The notes beneath the pieces are model-generated. The model made no database searches. It had not been told where the DNA came from and saw only the letters and a program-made list of their open reading frames with translations. A DNA stretch of 63,102 bases, filler included, from Stramenopiles sp. TOSAG23-3 (Eukaryota), in assembly GCA_900128585.1 (NCBI GenBank). It is 13 parts of 13 records of this genome, joined end to end, with 100 filler letters (N's around TTAATTAATTAA, not from the genome) between each part and the next. Parts side by side here need not be neighbours in the genome. Positions count along the whole stretch, not along the records: positions 32,572 to 38,960 come from LT643328.1; 12 more parts are not named here. One strand, given 5' to 3'. Position 1 is the stretch's first letter, and every line of letters starts with the position of its first letter. Made by a program: the position numbers and the translations under genes. This document shows, in pieces, positions 15,932 through 48,094 of the stretch.

Positions 15932-18802
15932 TTACACAGCATTGTTTGGGAAACTCTTGATCTCAATTTTGTTCTCTTCGTACAGCTTTTGTTTGTGATG
16001 TTTCTTGTACAGAGCATTCAGTACCACGAGCTGGATGATTTGGATTGAAACTGCAAACAGCAGCAGGCCCCCCATGGCCATCGAGTTTCTCCGCACGGCT
16101 GCTACCATAAGATCAACGAATTGTTGGTAGCCCTTGACCCCTGTGGAGCAAAATTCTGCTTGGCACTCTTCTTGGTCAAACCCAATCACGTGCTCATCCA
16201 ATACTTTGCAAGCCGCTTTCGCCATTCCCTTGAACTGCCCCGTCTTTGAACTCGGGGTTCCACTTATTGATTCGCAAAATTTTGGACGGGAAGGGTCGGA
16301 CACATCAAGAATACCAGTGTTGATATCGCCATCGTGCGCTGTTAGGCAAACGCCGCTGTCAAGGGATGTGGTGCCGTTCGTGGCGTTCACACTTGAATCC
16401 AAACGAGTCCCATTCACGACCACCGGGTCCTCCGTAACGGCCCCTACCCCAGTCCCCTCCGACGCGAGGCGGGGGTCGCGGCAGCAGTTGCGGTAAGACT
16501 CGCAGACATAGTTTTCCACTTCCATCAAGGCATCGCTTCCAAGCTTTCCATCCCATTTTCCACCGCCGATCGCACTGTTCTCAATGCCATCGAGGCTGTG
16601 CAAGTAAAACAGCAAAAGGAGCGCAGCAACGATTTGAACGATGAGAAAAAGCACCGAAACGAAGGAGGCAGAGAATATGTAAAAGCGACTTGGCGAGACT
16701 GCGGCCTTCCACTGCAACACCCCTTGAAGTAGAATGGCAACACCGAAGCAGATCAACGCAATATTGGCTGCCTTCGACAACAGGTTCCCGTATACACCAT
16801 CGTTCCCCAATATATACACCCCGACCCCGCAGAGTGCTGCACCCAGCAACACAAACAAAGCTGAAATAAAGTGAGACGACCTGATTTTTCGCTCTTCTGT
16901 CCCGAACAGGCATTTGGAAATCATGCTCATTACGATGGAAACGATGAAGCTAGCAACGAGCGGAATTACAATGTACAATTCGGAGTTGAGGAAGGAACTC
17001 AGGCCTTCTTTCTCAGGCGCCATTCTGGGAGGACCAAGCAAGGCACCCGTTCCGTTCATGAGTGGTCGGTACTTCTTGTACTTGTCCGCGTTTGAGCCGA
17101 TCTGAACGATGCACTCCGGGTGGCATGTCGACTTCATGCCGCACCCGTCCGGCGCGCACCTTGAAAATGCGGTCCTCGCCGTGTAGGATTCAGCGGCAAA
17201 GTTTCTGTTGCACTCTTTCTGGTCTGTGGCGACATACTCTTGGTCCATGTCCTTGTTCCTTTCGCGGCACCGTGTGGCAATAAACTCGCAGCCCCTGTAA
17301 GCGCCGTAGTCCACGTACTCCGTCTTAGAATAATCCACCAAGTAGAGACCCATGTCTTCCAACGGGGCCAGGCCGAAAGGAGTCAGCCGCCCAACGTGTC
17401 CATAAGAAATTACGTCCTCCACAAGAATAAAACTGTTGTGGTGGCTGTCCCGGCCGGTCTCTGCCGACCCCATCAGGGGGAGCCCGTTCCATTTCGAATC
17501 GTCCTGACAGTCGAAATGAACCTTTGCGAGGGTCGAAACTCGGGTTGAGGGGTTGAAGTGCCAGAGGGCATCGTCCTTTTGCTTTGCAGCACCCGTCGTC
17601 GTGTAAACGTTTTTCAACTCAACGATGCCCGACCGCTGGAACATTTGAACGGTGAAACCGAGCCCATGAATTATTTCGTGGACCGAGAGGCTCGTGTACC
17701 GGTTCTCTTTAAGCTCTTTGAAGTCTGCGTCGGAAAGCTGCGCTTTCCGGCTGTTGATCGCCCGCAGGCCTGCCGCCAAGTCGACTCTCATATTGTAAAT
17801 CATGGTGATAGGGCGGCCGTATTGGTCGAACTCGCAGGGCCCGCCCGTGGCCCCACCGTTCATGACCGGGTTGTAGGTCAGGTAAACGACGGCGTTCGCG
17901 TCCACGCCGCCTCCACAGTAAGAGTCTGGGCTGGAGGCTCCGCACAAGTAGAACGTGTCCGCCCCACAACGCTGCGAGGAGGTGTCCCACCCCCAGGTGC
18001 CCGAGTACATGCTTGTGTACGTCCCCTGCGACTTTTGCAATTTTAGCTTCCCTGACATTTTCGGCACACGAAGCGCTGCTTCTAACTTATCAACGGCGTT
18101 GTCGACGCTTTCTTTGAAGTGCGCCCGCAGCTCTTCAGTAATGACGTCATCAGGCTGGCATTTGCCCCAGCACGGGGTCGTCGACACCGACGGCGGGCTG
18201 CACGTGGGGGCCGAGGGAATGTCGCTGGCGGTAACATACTCTGGGCCAGTGTAGTACCAGTCACCTGCGTTGAAGCATGTCTTGAAAGGTTTGGCGGACG
18301 CAAGATGCAGTTGGTCCCAGTTCACTTCTAGCTTTAGCGGAACCGTGTTGCTCGTAGTGAGGGTCGCGCCCTCAAGCTTGCGGGAATTTTCTCGCCTGCT
18401 TACGGCTTTCTCCACAACCCTTTGAAGGCTTCCCAAAATGCCGTCGTTCCGCCCGTAGTTTCCGTCCGCAGCCGCATTATATCGTTGGGGAGTGAAAGTC
18501 TCCGTCATGTGACGGTTTCCAAGCTTCTGGGCGACGCGGTGCTCGAACATCATAGCGCTGACGACCGGGCGCAAGGGCTCCAGCGGTTCCTTGGGGTTGG
18601 AAGCGCCTGTTGGCGAGGCTGACTTGTCACTTTCCTCCAACATTCTTCGCTCATGCTCGTACAGCTGCGGCATCCCCTCCCTGTGCACGTCTTCGATCGC
18701 TTTGCGTACAGCAGCATCCTCGTTGCTGGATACCCACACGTACGTGCCAGCGAAAAAGATGGCCGCCAGCACCGCCACGGAAACGAACTTGTGAGACGTC
18801 AT
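15932..18802 (-). CDS. Leishmanolysin/GP63 (peptidase M8) metalloprotease with C-terminal tetraspanin-like four-TM module
   Basis: N-terminal signal/anchor. DQYGRP, HEIIHGLGF zinc motif, HFDC, DSHH, LAPLEDMGLY and GAYRGCEF are M8 motifs. Then one TM, three further TMs, a Cys-rich loop (NCCRDP) and a final TM, as in tetraspanins. Confidence 0.85.
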   Translation of the reverse strand: MTSHKFVSVAVLAAIFFAGTYVWVSSNEDAAVRKAIEDVHREGMPQLYEHERRMLEESDKSASPTGASNPKEPLEPLRPVVSAMMFEHRVAQKLGNRHMTETFTPQRYNAAADGNYGRNDGILGSLQRVVEKAVSRRENSRKLEGATLTTSNTVPLKLEVNWDQLHLASAKPFKTCFNAGDWYYTGPEYVTASDIPSAPTCSPPSVSTTPCWGKCQPDDVITEELRAHFKESVDNAVDKLEAALRVPKMSGKLKLQKSQGTYTSMYSGTWGWDTSSQRCGADTFYLCGASSPDSYCGGGVDANAVVYLTYNPVMNGGATGGPCEFDQYGRPITMIYNMRVDLAAGLRAINSRKAQLSDADFKELKENRYTSLSVHEIIHGLGFTVQMFQRSGIVELKNVYTTTGAAKQKDDALWHFNPSTRVSTLAKVHFDCQDDSKWNGLPLMGSAETGRDSHHNSFILVEDVISYGHVGRLTPFGLAPLEDMGLYLVDYSKTEYVDYGAYRGCEFIATRCRERNKDMDQEYVATDQKECNRNFAAESYTARTAFSRCAPDGCGMKSTCHPECIVQIGSNADKYKKYRPLMNGTGALLGPPRMAPEKEGLSSFLNSELYIVIPLVASFIVSIVMSMISKCLFGTEERKIRSSHFISALFVLLGAALCGVGVYILGNDGVYGNLLSKAANIALICFGVAILLQGVLQWKAAVSPSRFYIFSASFVSVLFLIVQIVAALLLLFYLHSLDGIENSAIGGGKWDGKLGSDALMEVENYVCESYRNCCRDPRLASEGTGVGAVTEDPVVVNGTRLDSSVNATNGTTSLDSGVCLTAHDGDINTGILDVSDPSRPKFCESISGTPSSKTGQFKGMAKAACKVLDEHVIGFDQEECQAEFCSTGVKGYQQFVDLMVAAVRRNSMAMGGLLLFAVSIQIIQLVVLNALYKKHHKQKLYEENKIEIKSFPNNAV

Positions 18803-27334: not shown

Positions 27335-27940
27335 CTTTTAAAATGACATCCTCTGTGACATTTCTTGGGGGCTCCTCCTGTACCCTAGAGTATTTTTTTA
27401 CATGCTTATAGTTCGAGGACGGTGCGTGCTGAGAGCTCGGTATTAATATCGAAAAAAACAGCGAGCAAAGTATTTTTTGTATGCACCAAAATGGGCTGGG
27501 TGCACTTTCGGGATTCGTGGTGTTTTATGATGAAACTTTTAAACTTTTTATCAAACAAAATTAAAATGTTCTACGAAGTACTACGTTAGACACTACACGG
27601 ACGTTAAATCAGAAAAATGGAAACCACACATTTTTAAAACAGAGAAAAAATTGGCTGTTAATTAAAATTAATGTACTGCGAACTGAAATCTATCTTTGCT
27701 CTTTTGGTCTTACTAATCGATATACCCTTGTCACTTAGTATTGACTATCATTCTCAGAGATGTACTCCCTTTGTGACCTGAATCGGTAGATGGATTAACA
27801 CAGCTTCCACATGACCCATAATCAACTTCCTCATCCGGTGTTCCACTCGTAGATGGTTCATTCCTTGTGTGATCTTCAAAGACTTAAAGTATAAAACTGA
27901 ATTAGGTTTTTGTTTGTTCTAATTAAAGTTTAAGTGAAGT

Positions 27941-30900
27941 TTAGCCCCAATGAGAACATTGCTTGCACGGAAGCCCTTCCGTGAACGGCGGGGCGGCCTT
28001 TGAAAAGTCGATATAAGGTTGCCCACAGCATGTCCATAGCTGTTCTTTCACCCCCGTTTCTCCGGGAGTCGGGGTTTCTCCTTCAAGGCAATCGCGCACT
28101 CGAAAAATTCGCTTTCCTGGGTGGTACGAACACACATCTCCGCGGTTCGTATCGTCCGTAAAAAACTTTAGACATGAAGCCCGTCTGCACTGTTTTTGCC
28201 GTTGCGGGGAACAGCTCAACTGGATAGATGCCATCATTTCACGAATGTGCTCTGGATATTCCCCCAAGGCCTTCTCCGGATCGTGGCTTCCCCTATAGCT
28301 CTTGAACATTGTCTTGATTTCAGGAGTTTCTGCGTCACCAAGCATTGATTGATCTTCACCATCTTGGGAAAACGGAGACCGCATGTCTTGCTCGATGGCA
28401 GTCCCTTTCAACCCATAGCCCCACTCGTCGTCTTCTGCGAGGGAGTCGTCACTTGGCAATTCTTCTTCGCTGACGTATCCCGAAATAATAATTTGCGATT
28501 CTCCGACGGCGATATCGTCTTTGTTCATCGAATCTTCCGCTGAATCATTGTCCTTCTCTTCGTCGGATTCAACAACTTCTTGCCCGCGAAGGCGCACCGG
28601 CTTCTTAGCCGTTCGTAGCATTCCAATCGCCTTTATCGGAAACCCGTACAAGTCTTCCAGATTCGGGAACTCAAACCTTTCAGTTCGCATTGTGGCCTCG
28701 GCTTTGAACGCGAGCTCAGCCTTGTACGCCGACACACCGTCCTTTTCCATCCGGAGCGCCACCTGCGTCGCCTTGTCGTAGATTTCCAGCTCTTTGACAC
28801 CATCTTCGTCCGTAACAAGAAAGTTCACTATTGTGCTCCCTTCTTTGATATTTTCGAGGATTAGCCCATAAAGTGGGCATTTGATGTTCTTTGATATGTC
28901 AAGCTTCACCTTGGTTGTGAATTTTTCGTAGGATTGGAGAGCCGTCCCGTAATCCAGTTCGAGGGTCACCTGGGCCCGGAAGCCCTTCTGAAAAACTTCT
29001 TCAATATTTCTATCGTATTCTACCTCTTCGCAACGAACGGCTTCCCCAAGGGCAAAGTTGTCCATCACAGGGCACATCAACATAGTGTTTTGGTGTAGCA
29101 TTTCAGCATACGCGTGGTTCTCATGAGTTCCGTAGTTCTCTTTATTCTTAAAAGTAATAAGCAAAGGTTCACGCACGCTGCACATGTAAAAATTCGGCTC
29201 CATGGCATATCGGCGTCCCCACCCCAGGACGCCGCCGTACCCAAACGCGGCTGTCATCATTGAAATAGGGAACAAAAAGTACATGAATGGTGGGATTTCC
29301 AAGAAGAAATCAACGTCGATTATCCAAAAGACAAAGAAAACCAGGCCACTGGTTGGGAAGGCCACGCCCGCCAGCACTCCCCCAACCGTCATGCACCGCC
29401 GACTGCAGCATCCGTTTGCAAATTCTCTAATGTTGTCCTGCCGAAGCTCGATGAACCAGGGGTATATCAAAAGAAATTTATGCAGGAGCATAGGCCCACC
29501 AAACAGCTTCAGGCACGCGAAGAGGGATATCAGCAGCGTAATGCCACTCGGCAAAAATTCACTGGTCAAGAACATCAAGAGCCCCCAAGGAAACGATGAT
29601 ATGACCAAGAACGCCGCCGAGACTTTCGTCCACATAATGGTGGCTTCCTCGGTGCTCATAATTCGCTCACAGAATATTGGGTTTTCCTCGTCCCCGTTGA
29701 TTATTAACCTGTCCATTGTAATTAACTCGTTCTTTGGCAGATCATCTGTTCTGTGAAACACCTGAAACGTGGGAGTGCGAGACAAGAACGGGATACCTAC
29801 CCGCACCCACGATACATACCATGAAAGTGGCACTTCGATTAGCACTAAAATGATTGCTAGGAGCAGTGGGTTGGCATTGAAGTTAATATCAAGAAAGTAC
29901 TCCCAAAAGACAATGGGATGAACGGACTTTACCTCTGCCGTCAAACTGGTCGCAGTGTCTATACGAATGGTGCCGCGGTTCAAAGCACGGAGCACAGCCA
30001 GGGCGGCCAGGCATGAAGCGTTCAGTGGGATAATGGTAAAGAAGAAATTCTGCCATCTCCTGTCTTCATCAGGGGTAAACGTGATTACTTCCATCTTACT
30101 GTTCGACAGTGAGGTTTCTACCAAGTACCTGTGTTTGTGCTCCTTGCGTTCCCTCACCTCGTGTGCCGGAGGGAGCCGGGACTCTCGTGTAGGCTTATGG
30201 CGTAAGCCTAAGCGTGCCATCAAATTTCGCAGAAATTTGTGATTTGTGTATTTGGTGTCTATTGCACACCCTAAGAGAACACTCACAAGCCACATTAGCA
30301 CCATGGACTCCCCCGTAGTCGCCATCTGCGTCTCTTCGGCAAAATTATAATGGCCAGAGTAGACCCCGCACTCTTCCGAAGTGGGCTTTTCTGGTTTTGC
30401 GGCCCCGTAGCCTTTTGCACACTTTCGGCTATTGAAACAGCACTGGGCGTCGGCATCATTTGAGATGGAAGCAGCTTTCGCGTCCCTCCACGGATCCAAG
30501 GTCTCCCAATCGGGCGGGAGTGCGTTGGCAATGATGGTGACATTGTCCAAGGCAACAAAATCGTCAGAAATTTTAAAATCGCGTTGCTCAAACCGAATGT
30601 ACGTTGAAGTGGTCCATGCCCGCTTCGGAATGTCGACCGTCAAATTGAAAAACCACGGCGATTTGTAGACTTGGGCTCCAAACTGTTCAATGGGCTGCCA
30701 CGATGCTTGGTTGTCAATGCTATACACGAGAAACATGTCCCCGTTGAAGGCCGCACGGCAGAATTCATCGTGTGGTTTACCAGTGTCGTAGATAAAGCCC
30801 CCGAATTTAATAGAAAATGAAATGTAGCCCCCGTACTCAATGTTCAGTGCGTAGGTCGTTATGTCGCGGAACTTTTGTCCCGCAAAGACCATTGCCTGCT

Positions 30901-31750
30901 TGCCTTTTGCGCTGCCGCAAATGTCAAGCGGGTTGCCGTTGCGCACGTCGGACCACAGCGCACTGATCCGGTAGGAGGGGTTCCCACCTTTGAAGAAGGT
31001 CCAGTCACTGTTTATTTCGTTCCCACGACGAACGTATTCCGCGTTGAAATCTGCATCGAACTTCAGGCTCGGCTCTTCCCCTTTGGGAACTTGCACGTCT
31101 CCTTCAAAGTTGTCGTTCACGACAACTATTTCTTGATTGAACGGTATCTTGCACATGTCAAGGCCCATCCTACCCCGTGTTTTCGCGTACACCCGTTCGT
31201 CAATGACGCAAGCCTTCGTGCACAGTCGGCGGCACCGTTCCTTGGAACCACAGCCGGCTTCTGGAAAGGGGTCGGAATACCGCGAACCATTTTCCAGAAT
31301 CCCTACAAAGTTCACACATAGCTCATACTTACATGGCGGGAAGTACCCGACGCATTTGTACCCATGCAAGGTATCGTCGTTTGCCAGCTGGGAGATGAAG
31401 TAAGTGAAGGGCCAGCCGATAATGTTAAGCCACACAACAAACTTTACAAAGATCGCCCCTGCAACTTGGAAATTGTTGGAGCTTAGGTCTTCGACTATGC
31501 GGCCCAGTTTGTCTTTGTGCACGGTCCCTGACTTTCCCTTCCCGTCCACAGAATCCCCGCACGAGGGACACTCGCCTGTGCGATAGTAACACGAGTTGCA
31601 GTACCATGTGCCGCAACAAAGTCTGTAAATCGCGTCTTCTAAGCAGAGGCGGCACTCGTCGTGCGCGTCGTCGAGGACTTGAGCAACGATTTGGTTTGAT
31701 TTGGTCTTCCGTCGTTTGCGGCAGGGATTTCGGCAGCGGCACTGTACCAT
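27941..31750 (-). CDS. Large membrane protein: RING-like Cys cluster - TM - reelin-like subrepeat - multi-TM - C-terminal CHORD-like zinc domain
   Basis: CRLC...LCCGTWYCNSC...CPSC; ICGS...AMVFAG...YSIDNQASW...TYIRFEQ...ALDNV (reelin/BNR-like); many hydrophobic helices; CRRASC...CSYHPG...WTCC...C...H (CHORD-like). Confidence 0.7.
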   Translation of the reverse strand: MVQCRCRNPCRKRRKTKSNQIVAQVLDDAHDECRLCLEDAIYRLCCGTWYCNSCYYRTGECPSCGDSVDGKGKSGTVHKDKLGRIVEDLSSNNFQVAGAIFVKFVVWLNIIGWPFTYFISQLANDDTLHGYKCVGYFPPCKYELCVNFVGILENGSRYSDPFPEAGCGSKERCRRLCTKACVIDERVYAKTRGRMGLDMCKIPFNQEIVVVNDNFEGDVQVPKGEEPSLKFDADFNAEYVRRGNEINSDWTFFKGGNPSYRISALWSDVRNGNPLDICGSAKGKQAMVFAGQKFRDITTYALNIEYGGYISFSIKFGGFIYDTGKPHDEFCRAAFNGDMFLVYSIDNQASWQPIEQFGAQVYKSPWFFNLTVDIPKRAWTTSTYIRFEQRDFKISDDFVALDNVTIIANALPPDWETLDPWRDAKAASISNDADAQCCFNSRKCAKGYGAAKPEKPTSEECGVYSGHYNFAEETQMATTGESMVLMWLVSVLLGCAIDTKYTNHKFLRNLMARLGLRHKPTRESRLPPAHEVRERKEHKHRYLVETSLSNSKMEVITFTPDEDRRWQNFFFTIIPLNASCLAALAVLRALNRGTIRIDTATSLTAEVKSVHPIVFWEYFLDINFNANPLLLAIILVLIEVPLSWYVSWVRVGIPFLSRTPTFQVFHRTDDLPKNELITMDRLIINGDEENPIFCERIMSTEEATIMWTKVSAAFLVISSFPWGLLMFLTSEFLPSGITLLISLFACLKLFGGPMLLHKFLLIYPWFIELRQDNIREFANGCCSRRCMTVGGVLAGVAFPTSGLVFFVFWIIDVDFFLEIPPFMYFLFPISMMTAAFGYGGVLGWGRRYAMEPNFYMCSVREPLLITFKNKENYGTHENHAYAEMLHQNTMLMCPVMDNFALGEAVRCEEVEYDRNIEEVFQKGFRAQVTLELDYGTALQSYEKFTTKVKLDISKNIKCPLYGLILENIKEGSTIVNFLVTDEDGVKELEIYDKATQVALRMEKDGVSAYKAELAFKAEATMRTERFEFPNLEDLYGFPIKAIGMLRTAKKPVRLRGQEVVESDEEKDNDSAEDSMNKDDIAVGESQIIISGYVSEEELPSDDSLAEDDEWGYGLKGTAIEQDMRSPFSQDGEDQSMLGDAETPEIKTMFKSYRGSHDPEKALGEYPEHIREMMASIQLSCSPQRQKQCRRASCLKFFTDDTNRGDVCSYHPGKRIFRVRDCLEGETPTPGETGVKEQLWTCCGQPYIDFSKAAPPFTEGLPCKQCSHWG

Positions 31751-32471: not shown

Positions 32472-32914
32472 NNNNNNNNNNNNNNNNNNNNNNNNNNNNN
32501 NNNNNNNNNNNNNNNTTAATTAATTAANNNNNNNNNNNNNNNNNNNNNNNNNNNNNNNNNNNNNNNNNNNNTTTTTTTGCCCCCCCCCCCCCCCCCTGGA
32601 CGAAGAAGACGAAAAAGAAATAATAATAAATAAAAAATAATATTATTATTAATTATATTATTTATAAAATAAATTGTATCTTTTTTTTTTCTTTTCTATA
32701 TATTAATTGTTTTTTTCATAACAAAAATAAATGGATTATAAAGTTAATACTCAAAGAAAAAAATTGCCACCGCCAAGGTGCCTTTAAAATTATTTAAAGA
32801 TTTATCCCGAACAACAAAATATTGTTAATATTGTTAATGTAATAAACACCAAGGGATAAGTCTGAAGGAAAACGATTGATAAAGAGTAAGCGTGTTATTA
32901 TTGCGATAAGTGGC

Positions 32915-34843
32915 ATGAACGACAACCGCGACCGCTTGGACAGCCGTCTTAAAAGTGCAAAGGCAGCCGAAGCTGATTTGCCGTTCGACGTCGACGAAGT
33001 GCGTGCTAGGTACGATCATGAAAGGGAGATTCGCTTAAATCGACGCCCAGAAGGAAATGCACAATACAGTTCTTTGCCAGAACTGGCAAAAAAAGACGAC
33101 AGGTTTGCAGCAATGCTGCGGGACCGTTGGACGCCCGTCGTGCCCCGGGCACCTTTGACCGACAGCGTGCAGGTTCTTGTGATCGGTGCTGGCTACGGGG
33201 GCTTACTTGCCGGCGCGCGATTGGTCCAACAAGGAATTGACTCTAAATCTATTCGGCTTCTAGACGTAGCTGGAGACGTTGGCGGAACATGGTATTTCAA
33301 CCGATACCCAGGGGCCATGTGCGACATCGAATCGTACACGTACATGCCGTTGCTGGAGGATCTGGGATACGTTCCTAGTGAAAAGTATGCACACCAACCA
33401 GAACTGCTCCATCATTCTCAGCTTATAGCGAAAAAATACGGTTTGTACGAAAACGCTTGTTTTAATACAACATGCACGGGGTTGGAGTGGAACGAGTCAC
33501 GAAGGATGTGGAGTGTGATCACTAATCGCGGCGACAGATTCCATGCACAATTCGTCATCATGAATTTTGGGACGCTGACGCAACCGAAACTCCCCGGGGC
33601 TCCGGGGGTAGAAAAGTTTCGGGGGCACATGTTTCACACCAGCCGCTGGGATTACGACTACACGGGTGGGGATACGACGGGGGGGCTGGCGAACCTCCAC
33701 AACAAACGGGTAGCAATTGTTGGCACCGGCGCCACCGCCATTCAGGTAGTCCCGCACTTGGGTGCTGATTCGAAGCGTTTGACAGTGTTTCAGCGCACTC
33801 CGAGCAGCGTGGACGTGCGCGACAATCGTGCAACGACGCCAGATTTTGCCTCTTCTTACTTAAAGAAACCTGGCTGGCAAAAAGAGCGCATGGACAATTT
33901 CACTCTTATCACCCAGGCAAACGTGCCAGGCATTCCAGATTTGATCCAAGACGGTTGGACTAAAGTCACGCGCAATTTAAACCATGAATTTAGAGTTTTT
34001 CGAAAGAACCAGACAAAGTTAAAGTTGGACCCCAAAAGCATCGGCCGCATGATAGAGGTGGCTGACATGAAGCAAATGCATTCCGTTCGCACGCGTGCTG
34101 AGATGGTCGTTAAAGACCCAGAAACAGCAGAAAAATTAAAACCGTGGTACCAGCAATTCTGCAAACGCCCTTGCTTCCACGATGAATATTTGCCGACATT
34201 CAACCGCGCAAACGTGGAGCTTGTTCACGACCCCCACGGCATAGAAAGAATCACGGCGGATGGCATCGTGTCAAATGGGAAGGAATACGCCGTTGACTGC
34301 ATAGTATTTGCCACCGGTTTCGAGGTCGGCTTTCAAGCCTCCGAGCGCGGTTTTATGGTAGGTGGCTACGACATTGTGGGACGGGGAGGCGTAAAACTCT
34401 CGGAGAAATGGTCCAAGGGCCCCAGAACATTGAAAAGTTTTAGCACACATGGCTTCCCAAATTTCTTTATGCAAAATGCGCCTCAAGGTACTTTCACCAC
34501 AAATTTTGTACAGAAGTTAGATGAAGAAGCGCAGCACGTGGGATACCTAATCGGTAAAATGAATCGAGAAGGAATCGTGGTCTACGATCCATCGAAAAAA
34601 GCGGAGGACAAATGGTGTGATGCAATCTACCGGCGCAGTGGACGTGGAGCAAAATTTTTGAAGCGCTGCACGCCAGGGTATTATAACAGGGAAGGGAAAA
34701 TCTCTGAAGGGAAGACATTGAATTCAACCTGGGGCAATTCATTTTTGGGGAATCCTCTTCATTTTTTTGAATTGTTGCGAAAAGAAAGGGACGAAAATAC
34801 TGTGTTTGACGAAATTGACATAGAATATGCGGCGAAGTTATGA
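32915..34843 (+). CDS. Type I Baeyer-Villiger monooxygenase (FAD/NADPH) with C-terminal PTS1 (AKL)
   Basis: GAGYGG, GGTWYFNRYPGAMCD, BVMO fingerprint FRGHMFHTSRW, GTGATA, FQRTP, CKRPCFHDEYL, ATGF, CTPGYYN. Ends YAAKL*. Confidence 0.95.
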   Translation: MNDNRDRLDSRLKSAKAAEADLPFDVDEVRARYDHEREIRLNRRPEGNAQYSSLPELAKKDDRFAAMLRDRWTPVVPRAPLTDSVQVLVIGAGYGGLLAGARLVQQGIDSKSIRLLDVAGDVGGTWYFNRYPGAMCDIESYTYMPLLEDLGYVPSEKYAHQPELLHHSQLIAKKYGLYENACFNTTCTGLEWNESRRMWSVITNRGDRFHAQFVIMNFGTLTQPKLPGAPGVEKFRGHMFHTSRWDYDYTGGDTTGGLANLHNKRVAIVGTGATAIQVVPHLGADSKRLTVFQRTPSSVDVRDNRATTPDFASSYLKKPGWQKERMDNFTLITQANVPGIPDLIQDGWTKVTRNLNHEFRVFRKNQTKLKLDPKSIGRMIEVADMKQMHSVRTRAEMVVKDPETAEKLKPWYQQFCKRPCFHDEYLPTFNRANVELVHDPHGIERITADGIVSNGKEYAVDCIVFATGFEVGFQASERGFMVGGYDIVGRGGVKLSEKWSKGPRTLKSFSTHGFPNFFMQNAPQGTFTTNFVQKLDEEAQHVGYLIGKMNREGIVVYDPSKKAEDKWCDAIYRRSGRGAKFLKRCTPGYYNREGKISEGKTLNSTWGNSFLGNPLHFFELLRKERDENTVFDEIDIEYAAKL

Positions 34844-34976
34844 AAAAATGGGACCTCTTGTATTAAATATCCAGTAAAAACAGTTTTACGAAACTTTTAA
34901 GTTAAAAATAATGTGTTTTTTATGTAAAAATAAAGTAGAGTTCAGTTCGCAGTACATTAATTTTAAGCCGTTTTCT

Positions 34977-36626
34977 TCATAGCTTTGCGGATTGATGTAA
35001 AACTTGCAGAGTGGCGAGTCTTTGGTAAGCTTCTTTGTTCCTAAAAGTAAGTTTTAACGGTAGACCGAGTTTTGGGCCAAGCGTAATGTCAGCTCTTTCT
35101 TCAATTGCCTTCCCACCGTTGGAAACTTCAATCTTAAAATGTTTGATCAGCGATGCTAGAATGACTGCAGATTCTAACAGTGCTAGCCTTTGCCCAGGAC
35201 AGGTACGTTTGCCCGCTCCAAAGGGTGCGAACCCAAACAGCCGACGGGCAACATCTGGGTTGTCGCCATCTTTGATCGGGGGGCAGCCTTTTGGCATTGA
35301 CTGCATCAATTCCAAAGAATAACCTTCCCGGTTGAATCGATCCGGCTTATATGTGTCTGCATCGCTCCCCCATAAGTCTTTCCTTCGGTTCAGTGCAGAC
35401 TGAGACACAAAGACATACGTTCCGGCTGGAAGATCGTATCCACCCAGTGTAGTGTCCTTCACGGACAGTCGGGGAAAGGAGGGCACAGTGGGATACAAGC
35501 GAAGGGTTTCATACAAGCAGCATTTCGTAAAGCTTAAGTTTTCAACTTCTTCAAAAGTTGGCGTAAGTCCTGTAATGTACTTTTTGGTTTCCTCAAACAG
35601 CATTTGTTGCTGGTCTTGGTGTTGTGCGAGCAACAAAAGCGCCCAAGACAATGTGTTGCTCGTCGTTTCGTGGCCAGCACCTCTAATTGTGATGAATTCA
35701 TCGATGACTTCTTGCTCCGTTAGCCTCGCACCGTCTTCGTCGACCGCATTTCGCATTGCTTGGACCATATTATTGGCAGTATCTTTGCCAGACTTGCCAT
35801 TTCTACCTTTTTGGCCAAGTGCAAGACCTATACGATCTGTAGTTTCTTTGTATCCTGATTCACGGATACGTGACTCTCGCGATACGTCCTCAGAGGAAGA
35901 CAGCCATCGAAGGGCGTTGGCGCCGAGAGCAGAGGACATAGCGGCCCGGCGCATCATGAAGGCCGTGTCTTTTACATCCATATTTTCTTCTTCGCGAATG
36001 AGTTGGGAGCCAAACCGCTGACCAAGTCCTATCAGACCAATAATTTCGTGTGTACAACATGCCAGATCGTAATGTGCATTCACAACAGTGCCTTCTGACG
36101 CCGCTTGCCCCCATTTGTGGACGAGAACGATGGTTTCTGCTCGCACCGTTCCAGTGTACTTGACCAAATGCTTGTCCGTCAGTAAAGAGCCTATGATGCG
36201 CCGATGGAACGAATGCCGCGATCCAGTGGGCAATTCGACAAGGCCTTCGCCAACGGTATCAGACAGTCCAGACTTTCCGCGTGTTGGAAATGTCTTGCTG
36301 TCTTGCAAAACTTGTTTTACCAACTCGGGATCACTGATGTTGACGACTAACTTTACAAGGCCTCCTCCCATCGCAGGCGGTGGTACCATGCAATAAATAT
36401 GGCCCATCTCAACGACTAACTCACGGTCTATTTTATGTCGGCCCCATATGGAGTATTTCCGAAGCTTGTCTGCAAGTATTCCCGCGTGCGCAACAGGCGG
36501 GAGTTTTACGTCGTTTTTCCCGTTTTCAGTTCCAAACAAATATCGACGAATTATAGGGATTCCCGTCAGCGCCCGAGTGCTGAGGTTTAGGATGGGGGAG
36601 ATAACGTAGCCACTGAACGTGTCCAT
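34977..36626 (-). CDS. Cytochrome P450 with C-terminal PTS1 (AKL)
   Basis: I-helix GAGHETT, K-helix ETLRLYP, PDRF, heme motif FGAGKRTCPG. Ends QSAKL*. No clear hydrophobic N-terminal ER anchor. Confidence 0.95.
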   Translation of the reverse strand: MDTFSGYVISPILNLSTRALTGIPIIRRYLFGTENGKNDVKLPPVAHAGILADKLRKYSIWGRHKIDRELVVEMGHIYCMVPPPAMGGGLVKLVVNISDPELVKQVLQDSKTFPTRGKSGLSDTVGEGLVELPTGSRHSFHRRIIGSLLTDKHLVKYTGTVRAETIVLVHKWGQAASEGTVVNAHYDLACCTHEIIGLIGLGQRFGSQLIREEENMDVKDTAFMMRRAAMSSALGANALRWLSSSEDVSRESRIRESGYKETTDRIGLALGQKGRNGKSGKDTANNMVQAMRNAVDEDGARLTEQEVIDEFITIRGAGHETTSNTLSWALLLLAQHQDQQQMLFEETKKYITGLTPTFEEVENLSFTKCCLYETLRLYPTVPSFPRLSVKDTTLGGYDLPAGTYVFVSQSALNRRKDLWGSDADTYKPDRFNREGYSLELMQSMPKGCPPIKDGDNPDVARRLFGFAPFGAGKRTCPGQRLALLESAVILASLIKHFKIEVSNGGKAIEERADITLGPKLGLPLKLTFRNKEAYQRLATLQVLHQSAKL

Positions 36627-37057
36627 AATATCTTTGCTAGTCTTCCAATGAGAAAAAGAGACACGAAAAAGTCCGTGCTATCTTTTGGAATGCTTCAGCA
36701 AAAAGAAAAGTGCTTCAACTTTTGTTGCATGCAGAGAAATGTGTAAAGTAGCTATTTAGTAGGAAGATGGCCTAAAAACATCAACCCCTTCTTCTTCTCC
36801 TTCCCTTCTTCACTTCCCATCCTACCAACTTGGGTACCAGAAGAGACTTATTATTCGGTTTGTACACACTTTTCTTCGTTTTTGTTGGATATTTTTTTTT
36901 CTTTTTTTTTTTTTTTACTAATTTTATTAGGGCAATCTTAAACACGCACTGTGTCTATATTACATTGTAATAGAATAATAATACTATATACAGTAACAAA
37001 AATTATTATTAAACTTCAACTTCTTTTATTTGTTGTACTTTATTGGGCTGAACCTTG

Positions 37058-37972
37058 TTACAATTTGCTCATCGCACCTCGCAACGCCTTTGCGTTCCTG
37101 CGAATCTGCCCAACAGGCACAACAGCCTTGCACACTGCCTCAGCTCTGGCACGAATGGCAAAATCCGTGATCATAGAGTGAGTGTTGATGTACAATACGT
37201 CCCCCTTTCGAATGGCGTCGAACACCGCTTCTGCGACGGCGGCCGGGCTGAGTGCACCGGGCATACGGGCAAACGTGTCAATTTCTGCTGCCGTTGGCAG
37301 TCTTTCTCCGTGATTTTCCTCGTACTTGCTCTGGTTAAGAATGTTTGTGACAACCATGGCAGGGCATAGACACGACACGCCAACACGAGGAAACACGTCC
37401 GCATTGAAGACATCCTGAAGCAATCGCTCGGTCACAGCGACGCACGCACTCTTAGATGCCGAGTAAGCTCCTAAAAACCCACTGATGTACGCCGCCATGG
37501 ATGCAGTGTTGCACACATGTCCCTCGTATGTTTCATCCTCTTGGGCACGAGATATCATCCATTTACCAAATGTATGGCAGCCGTAGAGAACGCTCCAAAA
37601 ATTTACGCCCATGACCCATTCCCACTTTGCAATATCAGCGTTAGCGACAGACTTAGCCCCGTCCCCACCGCCCACACCCGCATTATTGAATAGTACGTTG
37701 ACTGTTCCAAACTTGTCGAGCGTAATGCGCAGGAGCCGTTGGAGGTCTGCCAGGCGAGAGACGTTCGTACGCACAGCGATTATAGAAGTAATGACATCGT
37801 GTTTGTCACCGAGGCGGCCACGAAGTGCCGCAACGGTTTTGTTCAGATCCCCACTAATGTCTGCGAGAACAACGCCACGAGCCCCTTCCTCGATTGCTCT
37901 TTCTGCTAGGGCTAGCCCGATTCCCATGGCAGCACCAGTAACGACGACAATCTTTCCATGAAGTGTTTTCAT
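37058..37972 (-). CDS. Classical short-chain dehydrogenase/reductase with C-terminal PTS1 (SKL)
   Basis: TGAAMGIG, NNAG, NTAS, catalytic YSASK. Ends AMSKL*. Confidence 0.95.
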   Translation of the reverse strand: MKTLHGKIVVVTGAAMGIGLALAERAIEEGARGVVLADISGDLNKTVAALRGRLGDKHDVITSIIAVRTNVSRLADLQRLLRITLDKFGTVNVLFNNAGVGGGDGAKSVANADIAKWEWVMGVNFWSVLYGCHTFGKWMISRAQEDETYEGHVCNTASMAAYISGFLGAYSASKSACVAVTERLLQDVFNADVFPRVGVSCLCPAMVVTNILNQSKYEENHGERLPTAAEIDTFARMPGALSPAAVAEAVFDAIRKGDVLYINTHSMITDFAIRARAEAVCKAVVPVGQIRRNAKALRGAMSKL

Positions 37973-39496
37973 TCTGTATTTGTGCTTTTTGAGGATAGAG
38001 TCTTTTTCCGACTTTGCTTTATCTTGCTCGAATTGTCTTCAAATTTTCAAAAGCCGTATTTTCTCAATTACACAGAAGTACCGGTGCAGGTACAATTATA
38101 CCGATATGGTGCAGGATACTACAATTATTACGGACTGTGCTTTTTTTAATAATAAAAAAATAATAAAAAAAAAAAATTAATAATAATTATTAATAATAGA
38201 GACTAGTCTAATAAAATAATAATAAAAAAATTATTTGGATTTTTTTTCAGATGCCCTACCTACCTAACCCTATCGGTACCCGAACCTATACAATCCTCGT
38301 ACGAGGCGCAGCTGTTGTTTAAAAAAAAACAAATTAACTCGTCCTTGTTATTGTAATGTATTTGTTACCTACGTAGTCTACGAGGCGTAGCTACCAAGCA
38401 GTTAGCTTTTCCAACCAAAAAAAGATCTTGTTGCTTCGATCGATGACCACACACCATTACTTTATAGACCGGCCAGCTACTCCTCGTACGTATTATAGCT
38501 AATGATACTGTACACTAATCCGGGAATACCAAGTAGTCTTTCCTCGTAGTCGTCTGAACCATCATCTTATTCCCCCTTCATCATCCGCCCTCCAACATAA
38601 TTATTAGACCGACTAGTAGGATAGCAAATGGTGATCAATCACAAAATGATGCATTATGAAAGTGTCAGTCTCTCGGTGCACTTCGACTGTTTTCATAGAC
38701 AGAAAAGTCTAACAGAAGTAAGAAAAAAGAAGGAGAAGAGTTCGAATCCACACCTGCCTCGGGCTCTTATCGCAAAACAGCAATCGTAGCATTTAAAAGT
38801 ACAGCATGGAGAGTGAACGAAGGTCGCAACAGTTCGACGTCTATGGCCCACTGTTTGGCAGCTGGACTAAAGTTGCGGAATATAGGGATGGGCAACTCTC
38901 TTCGTTTGAAACAATTTATTGCGTAATTTTGAGCAATATGGGCGTTCTAGGGGTTCGGTCNNNNNNNNNNNNNNNNNNNNNNNNNNNNNNNNNNNNNNNN
39001 NNNNTTAATTAATTAANNNNNNNNNNNNNNNNNNNNNNNNNNNNNNNNNNNNNNNNNNNNTCTCCAAAGATGGTTGATATTATCACGGATTTTGACTGGG
39101 ATTCGGGTCGCTTTGTTGAGTTCAAATCGCCTTTCACAAAAAAAAGAAATATTATCACCTGGTAATAATTCTTCTCGTTGGAATAAAAATAATTCCTCTG
39201 TGATGATTGACAATCATCCACGACGAAACGACGAAACGAAACCTAAAAATCAAATTAAAAAATGAAACTAAAAGTCAAGATAGGATTAGGGTTGGAACTG
39301 AAATTGTTGTAATTGATTTAAAATTTCATATGATAATCAGCCAATTATTTTCTTGTTTTTAAATTTAAAACTGGGCTTTCGATAATAAATATCTTATATT
39401 TTCAGATGAGAAATGTACTCACAAATTAAATGTGTCGACTTTGCTCCTTATTCTTATAAAAATGAGATGCATCAAATGGGTGAAACGCAGAGGGTT

Positions 39497-46612: not shown

Positions 46613-48094
46613 TCAAGGCACAACTTTGCAGTCATTGCCAACAAAAATTACAGACCTCTTCAGCTCCATGGCACGAAACATATCCAGTGATCTGACGTAT
46701 TCGCGTGACGCCAAGTCCGCTTGGCGGATAGGCACGGGGATTCTGAATTTCGGGCTGCAGCGGGACACGAGCGCAACGGCCGTGCTCGTCGATATCCTGT
46801 GCCCAGGACTGACATAGACGGGTTTCTTTACCCCCGCCTTGCTGAACGCTGCCCCCAGAACTTCCCCGGTAAATTTACTCACGATGTTCATGTGGCCCTC
46901 TTCAAAAACGGACACCGTTTTCTGCATTTCCTTTTCGACTTCTTTGGCAGCAAGACCGTCGCAGTTCAAAAACGATTTTCCAACCCCCAATGTTGGAAGA
47001 TCCATCAAAACACCCAGGTGGGACGCGGCCCCGACCCGATTGGGGTGCAATATTCCGTTTCCATCGCACATCAACAATCCGGGGTAGTATTCTGGGTTTT
47101 TTTCTTTCAGCTCTTCTAGCAAAACTTGGAAGTATTCCACTTCCCGAAATGCCAGAAAACCAGAAATATACGGGTGCGTCAACTCAATCCTGCGGTACGC
47201 TTCATATACTAACTTCAGCCCAGGAAACTCGAAGACCACCAGGCCACTAACTGCATCCACGTCGCTATTGTTTACAAATGAAATGTCGCACCCACCAACG
47301 TATTTCAGTTTTTGAACATCAAATTTGTCTTGAACAACAACTTTCTTTCTCACTTCGTTCTGTATCGTTTCCCATTCCCGGAGGATGTTCGATTCTTGGA
47401 TTGGCTTTTCCGGCACGCCGGCTGCTTTTGCAGTTTCACTCTTAGGCTGTGAGAAAAATGTTTTCATGAACGATCTCCCTTTTGATTCTTGTTCCCAAAG
47501 TTTCAGTCCATGATCAAAGCTTGGCCAGTTCAGCCCCGTACCTTTTTGCAATTTGATAGCGCACACACCAATAGAATGCGCCAATCGAACGTTGTATGAC
47601 ATGTCATCGAAAAATATTATGTCGTGGTTGCAAATCCTTTGCTTGCTGCAGAAGGAAAGTATTTTTTGGAAATGCTTTGCTTTGCCATCACCCGAACCGC
47701 GTTGAACACAGACCAAAGCAGGAGTGAAATATTTATAAACACCAAACGCCCGCAGAGCGTTCGCGGCGTGCGAAATATCTGGGCTGCTCGATGCAACGCC
47801 CATTAGAACACCGTTACCTTTCAAACTTTCAAGGATTTCCACGACATCCGGAAACAAGTGAACGGTTTTTCGTTCCGGGCGCGAGTCTCTCTCTTTCGAA
47901 TTGCAAACGGCAGCACCCGCACCATCCCCCGTTTGAAAAGGACCACTCAGATGTTCAAAAACAAAAAACGGCCATAAAGTATAATCCAGGTCAAACACAC
48001 AGACTTTTGGCCACTTTGAAGGTGTATATCTCGACCCCGATATACGCCGTTTACGGCAAGTGCGTGTCGGGGAACAGGAAACCAAGGACGACAT
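46613..48094 (-). CDS. ENDOV: Magnesium-dependent phosphatase-1 (HAD) - endonuclease V fusion
   Basis: N-half: VFDLDYTLWP, GVASS, K..HF, IFFDD. C-half: GGCDISF, PYISGFLAFRE, MCDGNGILHP, GVGK, PVYVSPGH, RIPVPIRQADL. One ORF. Confidence 0.92.
   Translation of the reverse strand: MSSLVSCSPTRTCRKRRISGSRYTPSKWPKVCVFDLDYTLWPFFVFEHLSGPFQTGDGAGAAVCNSKERDSRPERKTVHLFPDVVEILESLKGNGVLMGVASSSPDISHAANALRAFGVYKYFTPALVCVQRGSGDGKAKHFQKILSFCSKQRICNHDIIFFDDMSYNVRLAHSIGVCAIKLQKGTGLNWPSFDHGLKLWEQESKGRSFMKTFFSQPKSETAKAAGVPEKPIQESNILREWETIQNEVRKKVVVQDKFDVQKLKYVGGCDISFVNNSDVDAVSGLVVFEFPGLKLVYEAYRRIELTHPYISGFLAFREVEYFQVLLEELKEKNPEYYPGLLMCDGNGILHPNRVGAASHLGVLMDLPTLGVGKSFLNCDGLAAKEVEKEMQKTVSVFEEGHMNIVSKFTGEVLGAAFSKAGVKKPVYVSPGHRISTSTAVALVSRCSPKFRIPVPIRQADLASREYVRSLDMFRAMELKRSVIFVGNDCKVVP

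Follow-up and report, generated by a model that had tools for sequence, protein, structure and literature searches.

Gene content and layout of the locus

The window, by which we mean the whole analysed stretch of 63,102 nucleotides, contains three adjacent genes of an uncultured marine protist that encode a type I Baeyer-Villiger monooxygenase (BVMO), a cytochrome P450 and a short-chain dehydrogenase/reductase (SDR). All three are intronless single-exon ORFs and together they span 5.06 kb (Table 1). The BVMO and P450 genes are convergent with 133 nt from stop to stop, and the P450 and SDR genes are arranged in tandem with 431 nt between the P450 start and the SDR stop. Apart from antisense shadows, no ORF of at least 100 aa is located between them. 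Positions and protein endings of the ORFs agree with the preliminary description, which had reported three neighbouring oxidoreductase genes with these gaps and the C-terminal tripeptides AKL, AKL and SKL. The catalytic motifs are complete in all three enzymes, the Pfam families are as expected, and the trio is a gene cluster in the sense of at least three non-homologous enzyme genes side by side. The trio is located among genes that encode CDC45, Mlo, an RNase III/Dicer-like, a ThiF/UBA5-like and a MutS protein. Because these are ordinary eukaryotic nuclear genes, a bacterial contaminant as source of the region was rejected.

Contigs from four RNA-library runs (X15, X16, X18 and X19) were counted at an identity of at least 95%. 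Such contigs, which neither prove transcription nor rank expression, were found in all three genes in two of the four runs, X15 (polyA) and X18 (oligo-dT); run X19 provided contigs inside BVMO and P450, and run X16 covered the full SDR. No splice joints were present in the contigs over the trio, and no contig of any run matched the spacer 38110-38960. The 5' UTR of the BVMO gene extends to at least position 32884, the start of an X19 contig. Taken together, the trio consists of native nuclear genes that are present in polyA and oligo-dT RNA libraries.

A comparison of the three promoters revealed no common motif beyond AT-rich low-complexity k-mers. The convergent spacer contains a 28-nt element with a second copy at 27666-27693 on the minus strand (two mismatches), behind the stop of the gene at 27941..31750; none of 100 shuffles gave two matches. 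This element also occurs in high-depth RNA-library contigs with differing flanks.

Table 1. Features of the oxidoreductase locus, with positions counted along the window.
Feature	Position	Strand	Basis
AT-rich region upstream of BVMO, GC 0.26	32572..32914	+	composition; N mask just upstream at 32472-32571
Type I BVMO gene, long-N-terminus subfamily	32915..34843	+	ORF, 642 aa, ends ...YAAKL
Possible decayed PTS2 nonapeptide, BVMO residues 7-15 (R-L-x5-S-A), N-terminal extension	32933..32959	+	alignment
BVMO C-terminal AKL, PTS1-type tripeptide	34832..34840	+	ORF end; common to P0002 and P0003
Repeated 28-nt element, 92 nt past the BVMO stop, within the 133-nt spacer of the convergent genes	34935..34962	+	repeat search
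Cytochrome P450 gene	34977..36626	-	ORF, 549 aa, ends ...QSAKL
P450 C-terminal AKL, PTS1-type tripeptide, end of variable tail	34980..34988	-	orthologue endings
P450 heme-thiolate loop FGAGKRTCPG, residues 469-478	35193..35222	-	motif scan
431-nt spacer: SDR 3' UTR (to ~36930) and P450 promoter/5' UTR (from ~36660)	36627..37057	.	X16 contig end at 36930; X19 reaches 36660
Single 1180-nt RNA-library contig, whole SDR and short flanks	36930..38108	-	run X16, record 16, 0 differences
Classical SDR gene, putative NAD-type Asp closing beta-2	37058..37972	-	ORF, 304 aa, ends ...AMSKL
SDR C-terminal SKL (PTS1)	37061..37069	-	orthologue endings

Enzyme classes and nearest relatives

The P450 is a member of the cytochrome P450 superfamily by Pfam score and by the defining motifs, namely the Cys-ligand loop FxxGxRxCxG, ExxR and [A/G]Gx[D/E]T[T/S] in the I-helix. 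It reached 228.3 bits with the model p450 (PF00067; cut-off 22.8, E 2.1e-67) and contains the motifs AGHETT, ETLR and PDRF in addition to the heme loop, in which nine of ten positions are invariant in the orthologue alignment and only position 473 varies (K, I or N). The top solved relative is the heme domain of P450 BM3 (CYP102A1; E 1.1e-34). This similarity is distant, and the fused reductase domain of BM3 is absent from the window P450. Its motifs for oxygen activation and heme binding follow the canonical pattern, as in fatty-acid hydroxylases of the BM3 and CYP4 types. P450s are assigned to one CYP family above 40% identity. Membership in CYP102 was rejected, with BM3 matching only at E 1e-34 and the nearest non-orthologous relatives at 41% identity or less; in a 50%-identity library the whole clade of PTS1-bearing P450s is a single representative. 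The top NCBIfam model is PtlI (NF045812), but with 138.7 bits against an equivalog cut-off of 800 the assignment as PtlI was also rejected. A CYP4-like cluster was observed among the nearest language-model neighbours, which we regard as a lead only.

Type I BVMOs are characterized by two Rossmann dinucleotide motifs and the fingerprints FxGxxxHxxxW[P/D] and [A/G]GxWxxxx[F/Y]P[G/M]xxxD. The window protein is such an enzyme according to both motifs and full-length homology: it shows the Pfam match FMO-like/Pyr_redox_3, the Rossmann motifs GAGYGG (residues 91-96) and GTGATA (residues 270-275), and the fingerprints FRGHMFHTSRWD at residues 235-246 and GGTWYFNRYPGAMCD at residues 123-137. Its top solved structure is 5mq6_A (E 6.6e-123), which aligns over residues 21-596 with the N-terminal extension included; for the structures of phenylacetone, cyclohexanone and steroid monooxygenase the E values ranged from 1e-75 to 1e-57. 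The PDB record of 5mq6 says oxidoreductase-like protein. This fungal enzyme is presumably the Thermothelomyces thermophila polycyclic ketone monooxygenase, which prefers bulky substrates, and the long-N-terminus subfamily is known for bulky ketones. The top NCBIfam model PtlE (NF045818) gave 662.7 bits, below its cut-off of 1100, so that the protein is only a relative and was rejected as an equivalog of the lactone synthases PtlE/PenE/PntE.

The third protein is a classical SDR with the glycine motif TGxxxGxG (TGAAMGIG, residues 12-19), NNAG (96-99) and YxxxK (YSASK, 170-174); the catalytic Ser was read by eye in the stretch NTASMAAY upstream of YSASK. The Pfam model adh_short matched with 110.7 bits (E 8e-32), and the stretch VLAD suggests a preference for NAD. 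With PRK06194, the top NCBIfam model, the protein reached 180 bits compared to a cut-off of 308; PtlF (NF045814) was the eighth-ranked model with 88.6 bits versus 450.

Peroxisomal signals in the three protein families

As consensus for PTS1 we applied (S/A/C)(K/R/H)(L/M), as quoted in a diatom study (PMC3178647). The endings of the trio are all inside this consensus, and they are the only ones to be so among the window's 54 single-exon ORFs that start with ATG and have 100 aa or more. To this extent the earlier statement that no other complete annotated protein ends this way held. Over all six frames there are 3822 frame ends, and at 8 of them [SA]KL stands before the stop; this number includes the trio. 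Since such endings are rare, three consecutive ones are far beyond chance.

For the P450, all seven relatives with at least 54% identity are tagged (ANL, SNL, SRL and four times SKL), and the linker in front of the tripeptide varies by 0-14 residues. A strict PTS1 was found in only five of the 110 listed P450 homologues, the window's own model and four members of the group with at least 54% identity, and in none of 140 further library representatives. A 307-aa P450 fragment with 47-50% identity (P0139) ends without PTS1. In a weak predicted model the C-terminal tail has a pLDDT below 50. A similar pattern was obtained for the SDR: the four orthologues, with identities of 79-45%, all carry a tag (SKL in P0232, P0233 and P0234, SRL in P0235), compared to one PTS1-type ending (AKM) in the other 115 listed homologues. 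The SDR begins directly with the Rossmann motif, and no rival presequence is present. The claim that [SA]KL acts here as PTS1 is thus strengthened, with tripeptides kept in the P450 and SDR orthologues and nearly absent from remoter homologues, and the endings of the trio look like selected peroxisomal signals.

The N-terminus of the P450, conserved among orthologues from M1 onward, needs separate consideration. A helix, a basic pair (RR) and an LPP hinge follow each other in a layout that recalls the anchor of microsomal P450s. The P450 might then not be imported at all: the helix would anchor the protein in the ER or at the cytosolic membrane face, and the tripeptide would be ineffective, leaving SDR and BVMO as the only peroxisomal enzymes and any pathway divided between compartments. 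The weaker endings ANL and SNL in two orthologues fit this possibility, as does a window without a reductase or ferredoxin as redox partner of the P450. In addition, a literature search retrieved no described peroxisomal-matrix P450, and the phrase 'peroxisomal cytochrome P450' was unmatched. However, hydrophobicity of the helix is weak (KD19 at most 1.36), and the peaks of the clade (1.2-1.5, and 0.37 in P0127) are under the usual transmembrane values. Moreover, the N-terminus falls short of that in paralogues of 38% identity by about 30-75 residues, the clade having lost the longer form, the tripeptide was kept in every orthologue despite the freely varying linker, and strict PTS1 is absent outside the orthologue group. 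Anchoring of the P450 is highly improbable in our judgement.

The history of the BVMO signal appears to be different. The AKL ending is kept in both close relatives (P0002 and P0003, 80-81% identity), and these two form with the window protein one subclade inside a eukaryote-like clade of 17 rows. None of the other 14 rows has an AKL/PTS1 ending; one ends with HKL, outside the consensus used. As a new observation, ten of the 17 rows contain a PTS2-like nonapeptide at the same N-terminal position, six of them in agreement with the consensus and four in a relaxed form, versus none of 102 bacterial-like homologues; the background was 3 matches in 1444 internal windows. Neither signal was detected in P0004, P0005 and P0011, two of which are the nearest non-AKL relatives. 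Residues 7-15 of the window BVMO align with the PTS2-like nonapeptides of the clade, do not fit the PTS2 consensus, and are possibly a decayed remnant. The N-terminus as a whole aligns to the extension of 5mq6, and there is no rival presequence. From the PTS2-like signals of the clade, together with AKL and the possible remnant in the window protein, the BVMO looks anciently peroxisomal, with a signal swapped from PTS2 to PTS1 in the window's lineage. The preliminary description had looked to related genomes for conservation of PTS1, and for the BVMO this was found in two of two close relatives, complemented by PTS2-like signals in 10 of the 14 other clade rows.

A candidate oxidation pathway and its counterparts

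The linkage of the genes was compared in the two P450 loci with readable flanks. In L002 (P450 58% identical) unrelated ORFs occupy 3.1 kb on the downstream and 650 nt on the upstream side, with neither BVMO nor SDR among them, and in L005 (59% identical) 2.5 kb downstream contain unrelated ORFs without BVMO. The synteny that had been proposed as a check was hence not seen in these loci. Among the closest bacterial homologues of the BVMO, 80 loci were compared: none contains the trio (0/80) or a P450 homologue, an SDR homologue is present in five, within 1 kb in only two, and the immediate neighbours are heterogeneous. Linkage of the trio looks lineage-specific. The search for an esterase or lactonase, likewise suggested before, found none within the window, nor any other hydrolase. 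Descent of the trio from a bacterial operon of hydroxylase, ADH, BVMO and esterase does not appear likely, since the window contains no hydrolase and the 80 bacterial loci no P450.

The missing linkage in L002 and L005 would also be expected if all three enzymes were peroxisomal but independent oxidoreductases, engaged in detoxification or in side activities of lipid breakdown, which became neighbours by rearrangement or within a chromatin domain. The lack of a common promoter motif, of an esterase and of a redox partner nearby, and the very mixed neighbours of the bacterial homologues, point in the same direction. On the other hand, three consecutive PTS1 genes among 54 ORFs are very unlikely by chance, the enzyme classes exactly match a known chemical chain, with PtlI and PtlE as top models and PtlF among those of the SDR, and all three genes occur together in two of the four RNA libraries. 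We consider independent enzymes unlikely. The earlier proposal of a clustered pathway stood with regard to the adjacency of the genes and the conserved tags, and failed with regard to the linkage in these two relatives.

We favour, with a confidence a little above even, that the PTS1-imported trio acts as one peroxisomal oxidation module. The trio is probably a real, functional peroxisomal hydroxylase/dehydrogenase/BVMO module with a chemical logic that is already known, and its enzyme classes fit the previously suggested order from C-H via alcohol and ketone to ester or lactone. From the sequences we infer localisation, reaction order, substrate class and a catabolic role as follows. Three separately transcribed nuclear genes would give rise to enzymes that enter the peroxisomal matrix via their C-terminal PTS1 tripeptides. 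The P450, a canonical O2-activating enzyme nearest to BM3/CYP4-like fatty-acid hydroxylases, would hydroxylate a lipophilic substrate at an unactivated carbon, and this substrate may be a long-chain acyl, an isoprenoid, or a cyclic terpenoid or steroid skeleton. From the resulting secondary alcohol the presumed NAD-type SDR would form a ketone, into which the BVMO would insert oxygen to yield an ester or lactone, and an esterase encoded outside the window would hydrolyse the ester to fragments for peroxisomal beta-oxidation. The P450 and SDR orthologue groups would have used PTS1 throughout and the BVMO clade PTS2 earlier, with the switch to PTS1 in the window's lineage; the linkage would be a lineage-specific assembly within the eukaryote and not an inherited bacterial operon.

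The same module could be biosynthetic and start from a cyclic terpenoid, a sterol or an oxylipin, which it would turn into a signal or defence lactone assembled in the peroxisome. In favour of this, the BVMO subfamily has 5mq6 and the lactone synthase model PtlE as its nearest relatives, the pentalenolactone pathway is built from the same three enzyme classes, a lineage-specific cluster is usual for specialised metabolites, and the domoic-acid cluster described below is a precedent in a protist. Against this, the window has no scaffold-forming enzyme (terpene cyclase or PKS), every NCBIfam match is far under its equivalog cut-off, and PTS1-bearing orthologues of P450 and SDR are found down to identities of about 45-54%, suggestive of a broader role. 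A biosynthetic role seems quite improbable to us, and the catabolic module remains our preferred reading.

To our knowledge, neither P450 nor BVMO enzyme types are known to work inside peroxisomes. Tentatively, and with more doubt than for the module itself, the trio could represent the first P450 lineage of the peroxisomal matrix in any eukaryote, together with a protist-wide peroxisomal BVMO clade (PTS2 mostly, PTS1 here) and a self-contained 'subterminal oxidation' route. If this is true, the peroxisomal route would open carbon skeletons that are otherwise not beta-oxidisable, such as isoprenoid or cyclic lipids. A P450 in the matrix whose acid-alcohol pair is normal requires an electron donor, and the proposal would imply an undiscovered peroxisomal electron-transfer partner of the P450 or the use of peroxisomal H2O2.

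In the pentalenolactone pathway of Streptomyces, PtlI (P450), PtlF (SDR) and PtlE (BVMO) have successive roles on a terpenoid. The chain of P450, SDR and BVMO ending in a lactone is the same, and the corresponding models match the trio; unlike that pathway, the window lacks both a terpene cyclase and an Fe/2OG hydroxylase. In the marine protist Pseudo-nitzschia, the domoic-acid (dab) cluster is reportedly a small cluster of metabolic enzymes that are not homologous to each other, among them a P450 (PMC11499653). It is biosynthetic for a toxin, its enzyme set is unlike that of the trio, and we know of no common organelle signal in it. In light of this cluster, the earlier view that protists have few described metabolic gene clusters is fair without being absolute.

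According to a study of diatoms, GFP-SKL is imported into peroxisomes, matrix import is PTS1-only, the predicted peroxisomal malate synthase ends with AKL, and enzymes that bear PTS2 elsewhere carry PTS1 (Gonzalez et al. 2011, PMC3178647). The words P450 and monooxygenase are both absent from the main text of this article. The diatom pattern of PTS2 to PTS1 parallels that of the window BVMO clade, although the window's own lineage may differ.

For bacteria, subterminal oxidation of alkanes and ketones has been proposed in Thalassolituus oleivorans MIL-1 (PMC6304351). In contrast to bacterial subterminal oxidation, the trio is eukaryotic, its genes would be transcribed singly, each protein carries a peroxisomal signal and no esterase is adjacent. 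The order of enzyme classes in the bacterial route (hydroxylase, secondary alcohol dehydrogenase, BVMO and esterase) is the same, and it likewise leads from C-H to an ester with products directed to beta-oxidation.

The BVMO, P450 and SDR genes and their surroundings

The preliminary description had placed a Baeyer-Villiger monooxygenase (BVMO), a cytochrome P450 and an SDR gene side by side, and this layout was confirmed: uninterrupted ORFs were found for all three. BVMO and P450 are convergent with a spacer of 133 nt, and P450 and SDR lie in tandem, 431 nt apart. The endings AKL, AKL and SKL were also as described. The window contains 54 ATG-initiated ORFs with 100 aa or more, and a strict C-terminal peroxisomal targeting signal (PTS1, here [SAC][KRH][LM]) occurs in 3 of these, the three of the trio; in all six frames together, 8 of 3822 frame ends have [SA]KL directly before the stop.

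Genes of the trio, with positions in the window
Gene	Product length	Position	Strand	C-terminus	Pfam match
BVMO (flavoprotein)	642 aa	32915..34843	+	AAKL	FMO-like/Pyr_redox_3
P450	549 aa	34977..36626	-	SAKL	p450, 2.1e-67
SDR	304 aa	37058..37972	-	MSKL	adh_short, 8e-32

The neighbours of the trio are ordinary eukaryotic genes (CDC45, Mlo, RNase III/Dicer-like, ThiF/UBA5-like E1, MutS, DENN and others). Bacterial contamination as the source of the trio was rejected on account of these surroundings and of the matching RNA-library contigs. In a check for foreign codon usage, the GC3 of the trio genes (0.48-0.54) was at the bottom of the range for the genes of the window (0.51-0.77), and a search for a promoter motif common to the three genes revealed nothing beyond AT-rich k-mers. 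The region 32572-38960 is free of the regular 44-nt N masks found otherwise in the window. Such runs occur in pairs every ~6.5 kb between 6428 and 62026, one pair (32472-32571) being located directly upstream of the BVMO promoter beside a C17 tract, and a single 104-nt run covers 15575-15678; the N runs look like masking and not like biology. Elsewhere in the window, an ORF of 493 aa (46613-48094, minus strand) shows an unusual fusion of an acid-phosphatase/HAD domain (28-202) with a full Endonuclease V domain (247-460). Also on the minus strand, a 956-aa ORF (15932-18802) contains a leishmanolysin (M8) peptidase domain and a tetraspanin domain, and a 1269-aa ORF (27941-31750) a Reelin subrepeat-B domain together with many predicted hydrophobic stretches.

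DNA of the window was detected in marine or seawater metagenomes, in 13 runs that come from 10 or more studies, and also in two runs of one sample that is its likely source; the organism is therefore not rare. Contigs of four RNA libraries from four studies were aligned to 32572-38960, and they indicate presence only, neither an expression level nor proof of transcription. Contig pieces from the polyA library X15 and the oligo-dT library X18 lie within all three genes, those of library X19 within BVMO and P450, and library X16 provided one contig of 1180 nt (36930-38108) with the whole SDR gene and short flanks. Over 32572-38960 these contigs gave no sign of splice joints. The segment 38110-38960 and parts of each trio gene were uncovered, which is not evidence of silence. 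A 28-nt element is present twice, with 2 mismatches, at 34935-34962 (plus strand) and 27666-27693 (minus strand), each copy following closely on a stop codon and having the orientation of the gene upstream of it. It recurs with differing flanks in short high-depth contigs of all four RNA libraries; it may be a small repeat in this organism or else a common 3'-end/terminator motif.

Enzyme families of the three proteins

Both Rossmann motifs are present in the BVMO, as are the two fingerprints of type I BVMOs. Among solved structures it is closest to 5mq6_A (E 6.6e-123), with the N-terminal extension within the alignment; this entry corresponds to the polycyclic-ketone monooxygenase, although the PDB record itself gives a generic name. 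Next come phenylacetone, cyclohexanone and steroid monooxygenases, at E 1e-75 or weaker. The P450 has a canonical heme loop, ExxR, PxRF and the I-helix motif AGHETT, and with these motifs intact it has the appearance of a normal O2-activating monooxygenase. The heme domain of P450 BM3 is the nearest relative of solved structure (E 1.1e-34). The motifs TGxxxGxG, NNAG and YxxxK identify the SDR as a classical SDR, and its cofactor may be NAD, judging by the Asp that ends beta-2. Its closest relatives are uncharacterised bacterial SDRs; the protein-atlas neighbours are likewise bacterial SDRs for this protein and generic P450s for the P450.

Among the NCBIfam models, the PtlE lactone synthase was the top match of the BVMO (662.7 bits versus a cut-off of 1100) and pentalenene oxygenase that of the P450 (138.7 versus 800), and PtlF was among the matches of the SDR (88.6 versus 450). 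None of the three proteins reached the equivalog threshold of these Ptl models, and they are therefore relatives, not members, of the named families.

Predicted peroxisomal targeting signals

The preliminary description had named conservation of PTS1 as a check of its peroxisomal reading, and P450 and SDR orthologues do keep PTS1-type endings, while nearly all distant homologues are without them. Among P450 relatives the ending is ANL at 81% identity, SNL at 66% and SKL at 59, 58, 57 and 54%; a copy at the metagenome locus L005 (59%), probably with introns, has SRL. In the alignment the last positions are kept as [SA][KNR]L, and the tail from the last fold element to this tripeptide varies by 0-14 residues. 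A strict PTS1 was found in 5 of the 110 listed P450 homologues, all within the group of the window's P450, and in none of 140 further library representatives. In the exhaustive library this group forms a single 50% representative, the next relatives having at most 41% identity. A 307-aa P450 fragment (P0139, 47-50% identity) has a C-terminus without signal. The SDR relatives have SKL at 79, 70 and 52% identity and SRL at 45%; only one of the remaining 115 listed homologues has a PTS1-type ending (AKM).

At the N-termini, the SDR starts at once with its nucleotide-binding motif, and the extension typical of the family explains the start of the BVMO. Orthologues of the P450 keep its N-terminus (helix, RR, LPP hinge), which is only weakly hydrophobic, with a maximum KD19 of 1.2-1.5, and 0.37 in P0127. 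In the 38% paralogues this part is longer by about 30-75 residues. An AlphaFold model of the P450, built from 7 sequences, had a mean pLDDT of 60.8, too weak for a fold search, and its C-terminal tail was of low confidence.

For the BVMO, the AKL ending is common to the window's protein and its two 80-81% relatives alone. A FastTree phylogeny with midpoint root only was calculated from 53 of the 120 listed homologues (the first 40 without P0012, a fragment of 497 aa, and 14 more distributed over the lower ranks). The AKL proteins form one starred subclade nested in a eukaryote-like clade of 17 rows, apart from 36 bacterial-like rows. The N-terminal peroxisomal signal PTS2, as [RK][LVI]x5[HQ][LA], was detected in 6 of the 17 rows at residues 6-10, except for one model with extra 5' sequence (residue 35), and four further rows contain the pattern with V or I at its end. 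PTS2-like nonapeptides thus occupy a fixed N-terminal spot in 10 of the 17 proteins (among P0006-P0016 and P0031). One row ends in HKL, and P0004, P0005 and P0011 lack PTS1 and PTS2 patterns alike. The motif is located in the N-terminal extension, which bacterial BVMOs do not have; the first 45 residues of the 102 bacterial-like homologues were free of such a pattern, and the background was 3 in 1444 internal 45-residue windows. At the same spot the window's BVMO has R-L-x5-S-A. P0038, labelled as the ochrophyte alga Phaeothamnion confervicola, groups within the bacterial-like clade and lacks the N-terminal extension, which may reflect contamination or a separate transfer.

Judged from these patterns, the eukaryotic BVMO clade looks anciently peroxisomal via PTS2, and the distribution suggests a protist-wide peroxisomal family. 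In our reading the lineage of the window would have exchanged PTS2 for a four-residue C-terminal addition. According to PMC3178647, diatoms are without the PTS2 route, and proteins using PTS2 elsewhere bear PTS1 there; in Phaeodactylum GFP-SKL is imported, and a predicted peroxisomal malate synthase ends in AKL. The BVMO pattern resembles this replacement; an origin of the window from a diatom or another PTS2-less lineage is only suggested.

Assembly of the cluster and the proposed route

A metagenome scan with the P450 alignment yielded 8 loci. The clustering seen by the preliminary description did not extend to the two readable distant relatives: the trio is unlinked there, because the flanking ORFs are unrelated (3.1 kb downstream and 650 nt upstream at L002, whose P450 has 58% identity and ends in SSKL; 2.5 kb downstream at L005, 59% identity) and tblastn with BVMO and SDR gave no match at either locus even at E 10. 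At L001 (66%) the 503 nt upstream are without an ORF and too short to judge linkage. The P450 orthologue at L005 (13-1353) was matched in at least 4 tblastn segments and is thus likely to contain introns, which the copy in the window does not have.

Inheritance of the trio as a bacterial operon was examined at the 80 bacterial loci with the best BVMO matches (46-51% identity, up to 10 kb of flank as the contig permits) and rejected. With a limit of E 1e-10, P450 homologues are absent from all of them, and five contain an SDR homologue (30-36% identity), two of these within 1 kb. At 58 loci (the other 22, with less than 3 kb of flank on one side, were excluded) the 116 nearest ORFs are mixed, with 3 esterases or alpha/beta-hydrolases, 2 SDRs, 2 distant P450s, 3 PhyH proteins, 4 enoyl-CoA hydratases and 4 second flavin monooxygenases. 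The arrangement therefore appears to have been put together within a eukaryote and not inherited from bacteria. Phytanoyl-CoA dioxygenase-family genes adjoin the BVMO at 3 of the 58 loci (L021, L028 and L040) and enoyl-CoA hydratases at 4, which hints weakly that the substrates of the BVMO family are lipids of branched-chain or isoprenoid type.

The best-supported reading of the sequences is a P450-SDR-BVMO route in the peroxisomal matrix. The three proteins would be imported, the P450 would hydroxylate an unactivated carbon, the SDR would produce the ketone and the BVMO would yield an ester or lactone, whose cleavage would be completed by a hydrolase encoded elsewhere. Its weak points are that the window contains neither an electron donor for a matrix P450 nor an esterase. 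Long-chain, isoprenoid or cyclic lipids are only a lead as substrates, since the P450 is akin to BM3/CYP4-like hydroxylases and the BVMO to bulky-ketone BVMOs.

Peroxisomes contain oxidases, catalase and beta-oxidation; to our knowledge, neither P450 nor Baeyer-Villiger chemistry is among their known functions. In a literature search with subscription journals outside its scope, we found no description of a peroxisomal cytochrome P450 by that name, nothing relevant on a PTS1-bearing P450 in diatoms and nothing of use on P450s of stramenopiles. Among the matches listed in it, none described a peroxisomal BVMO by title or abstract opening, or a diatom BVMO by title or abstract. In one study, on viriditoxin, a polyketide synthase was shown not to be peroxisomal. 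The chemistry and the targeting signals of the trio are each well known already. The search gave no account of a P450 clade in which a peroxisomal signal is conserved, of a clade of eukaryotic BVMOs bearing PTS2 or PTS1, or of the physical clustering of such a P450 and BVMO with the intermediate dehydrogenase.

If the signals work, as is suggested by their conservation, marine protists would own a matrix route that renders C-C bonds cleavable in lipids which beta-oxidation by itself cannot attack. This would bear on the recycling of isoprenoid, sterol or hydrocarbon carbon by abundant plankton and would pose the question of how electrons are supplied to a P450 inside the peroxisome. The BVMO clade would be a clean natural case of a swap from PTS2 to PTS1, and the trio a compact case of a metabolic cluster built within a protist genome. 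The same chemical order is known from the pentalenolactone pathway, which is echoed in the NCBIfam matches of the trio. The proposed order of reactions also follows the established bacterial subterminal oxidation (PMC6304351).
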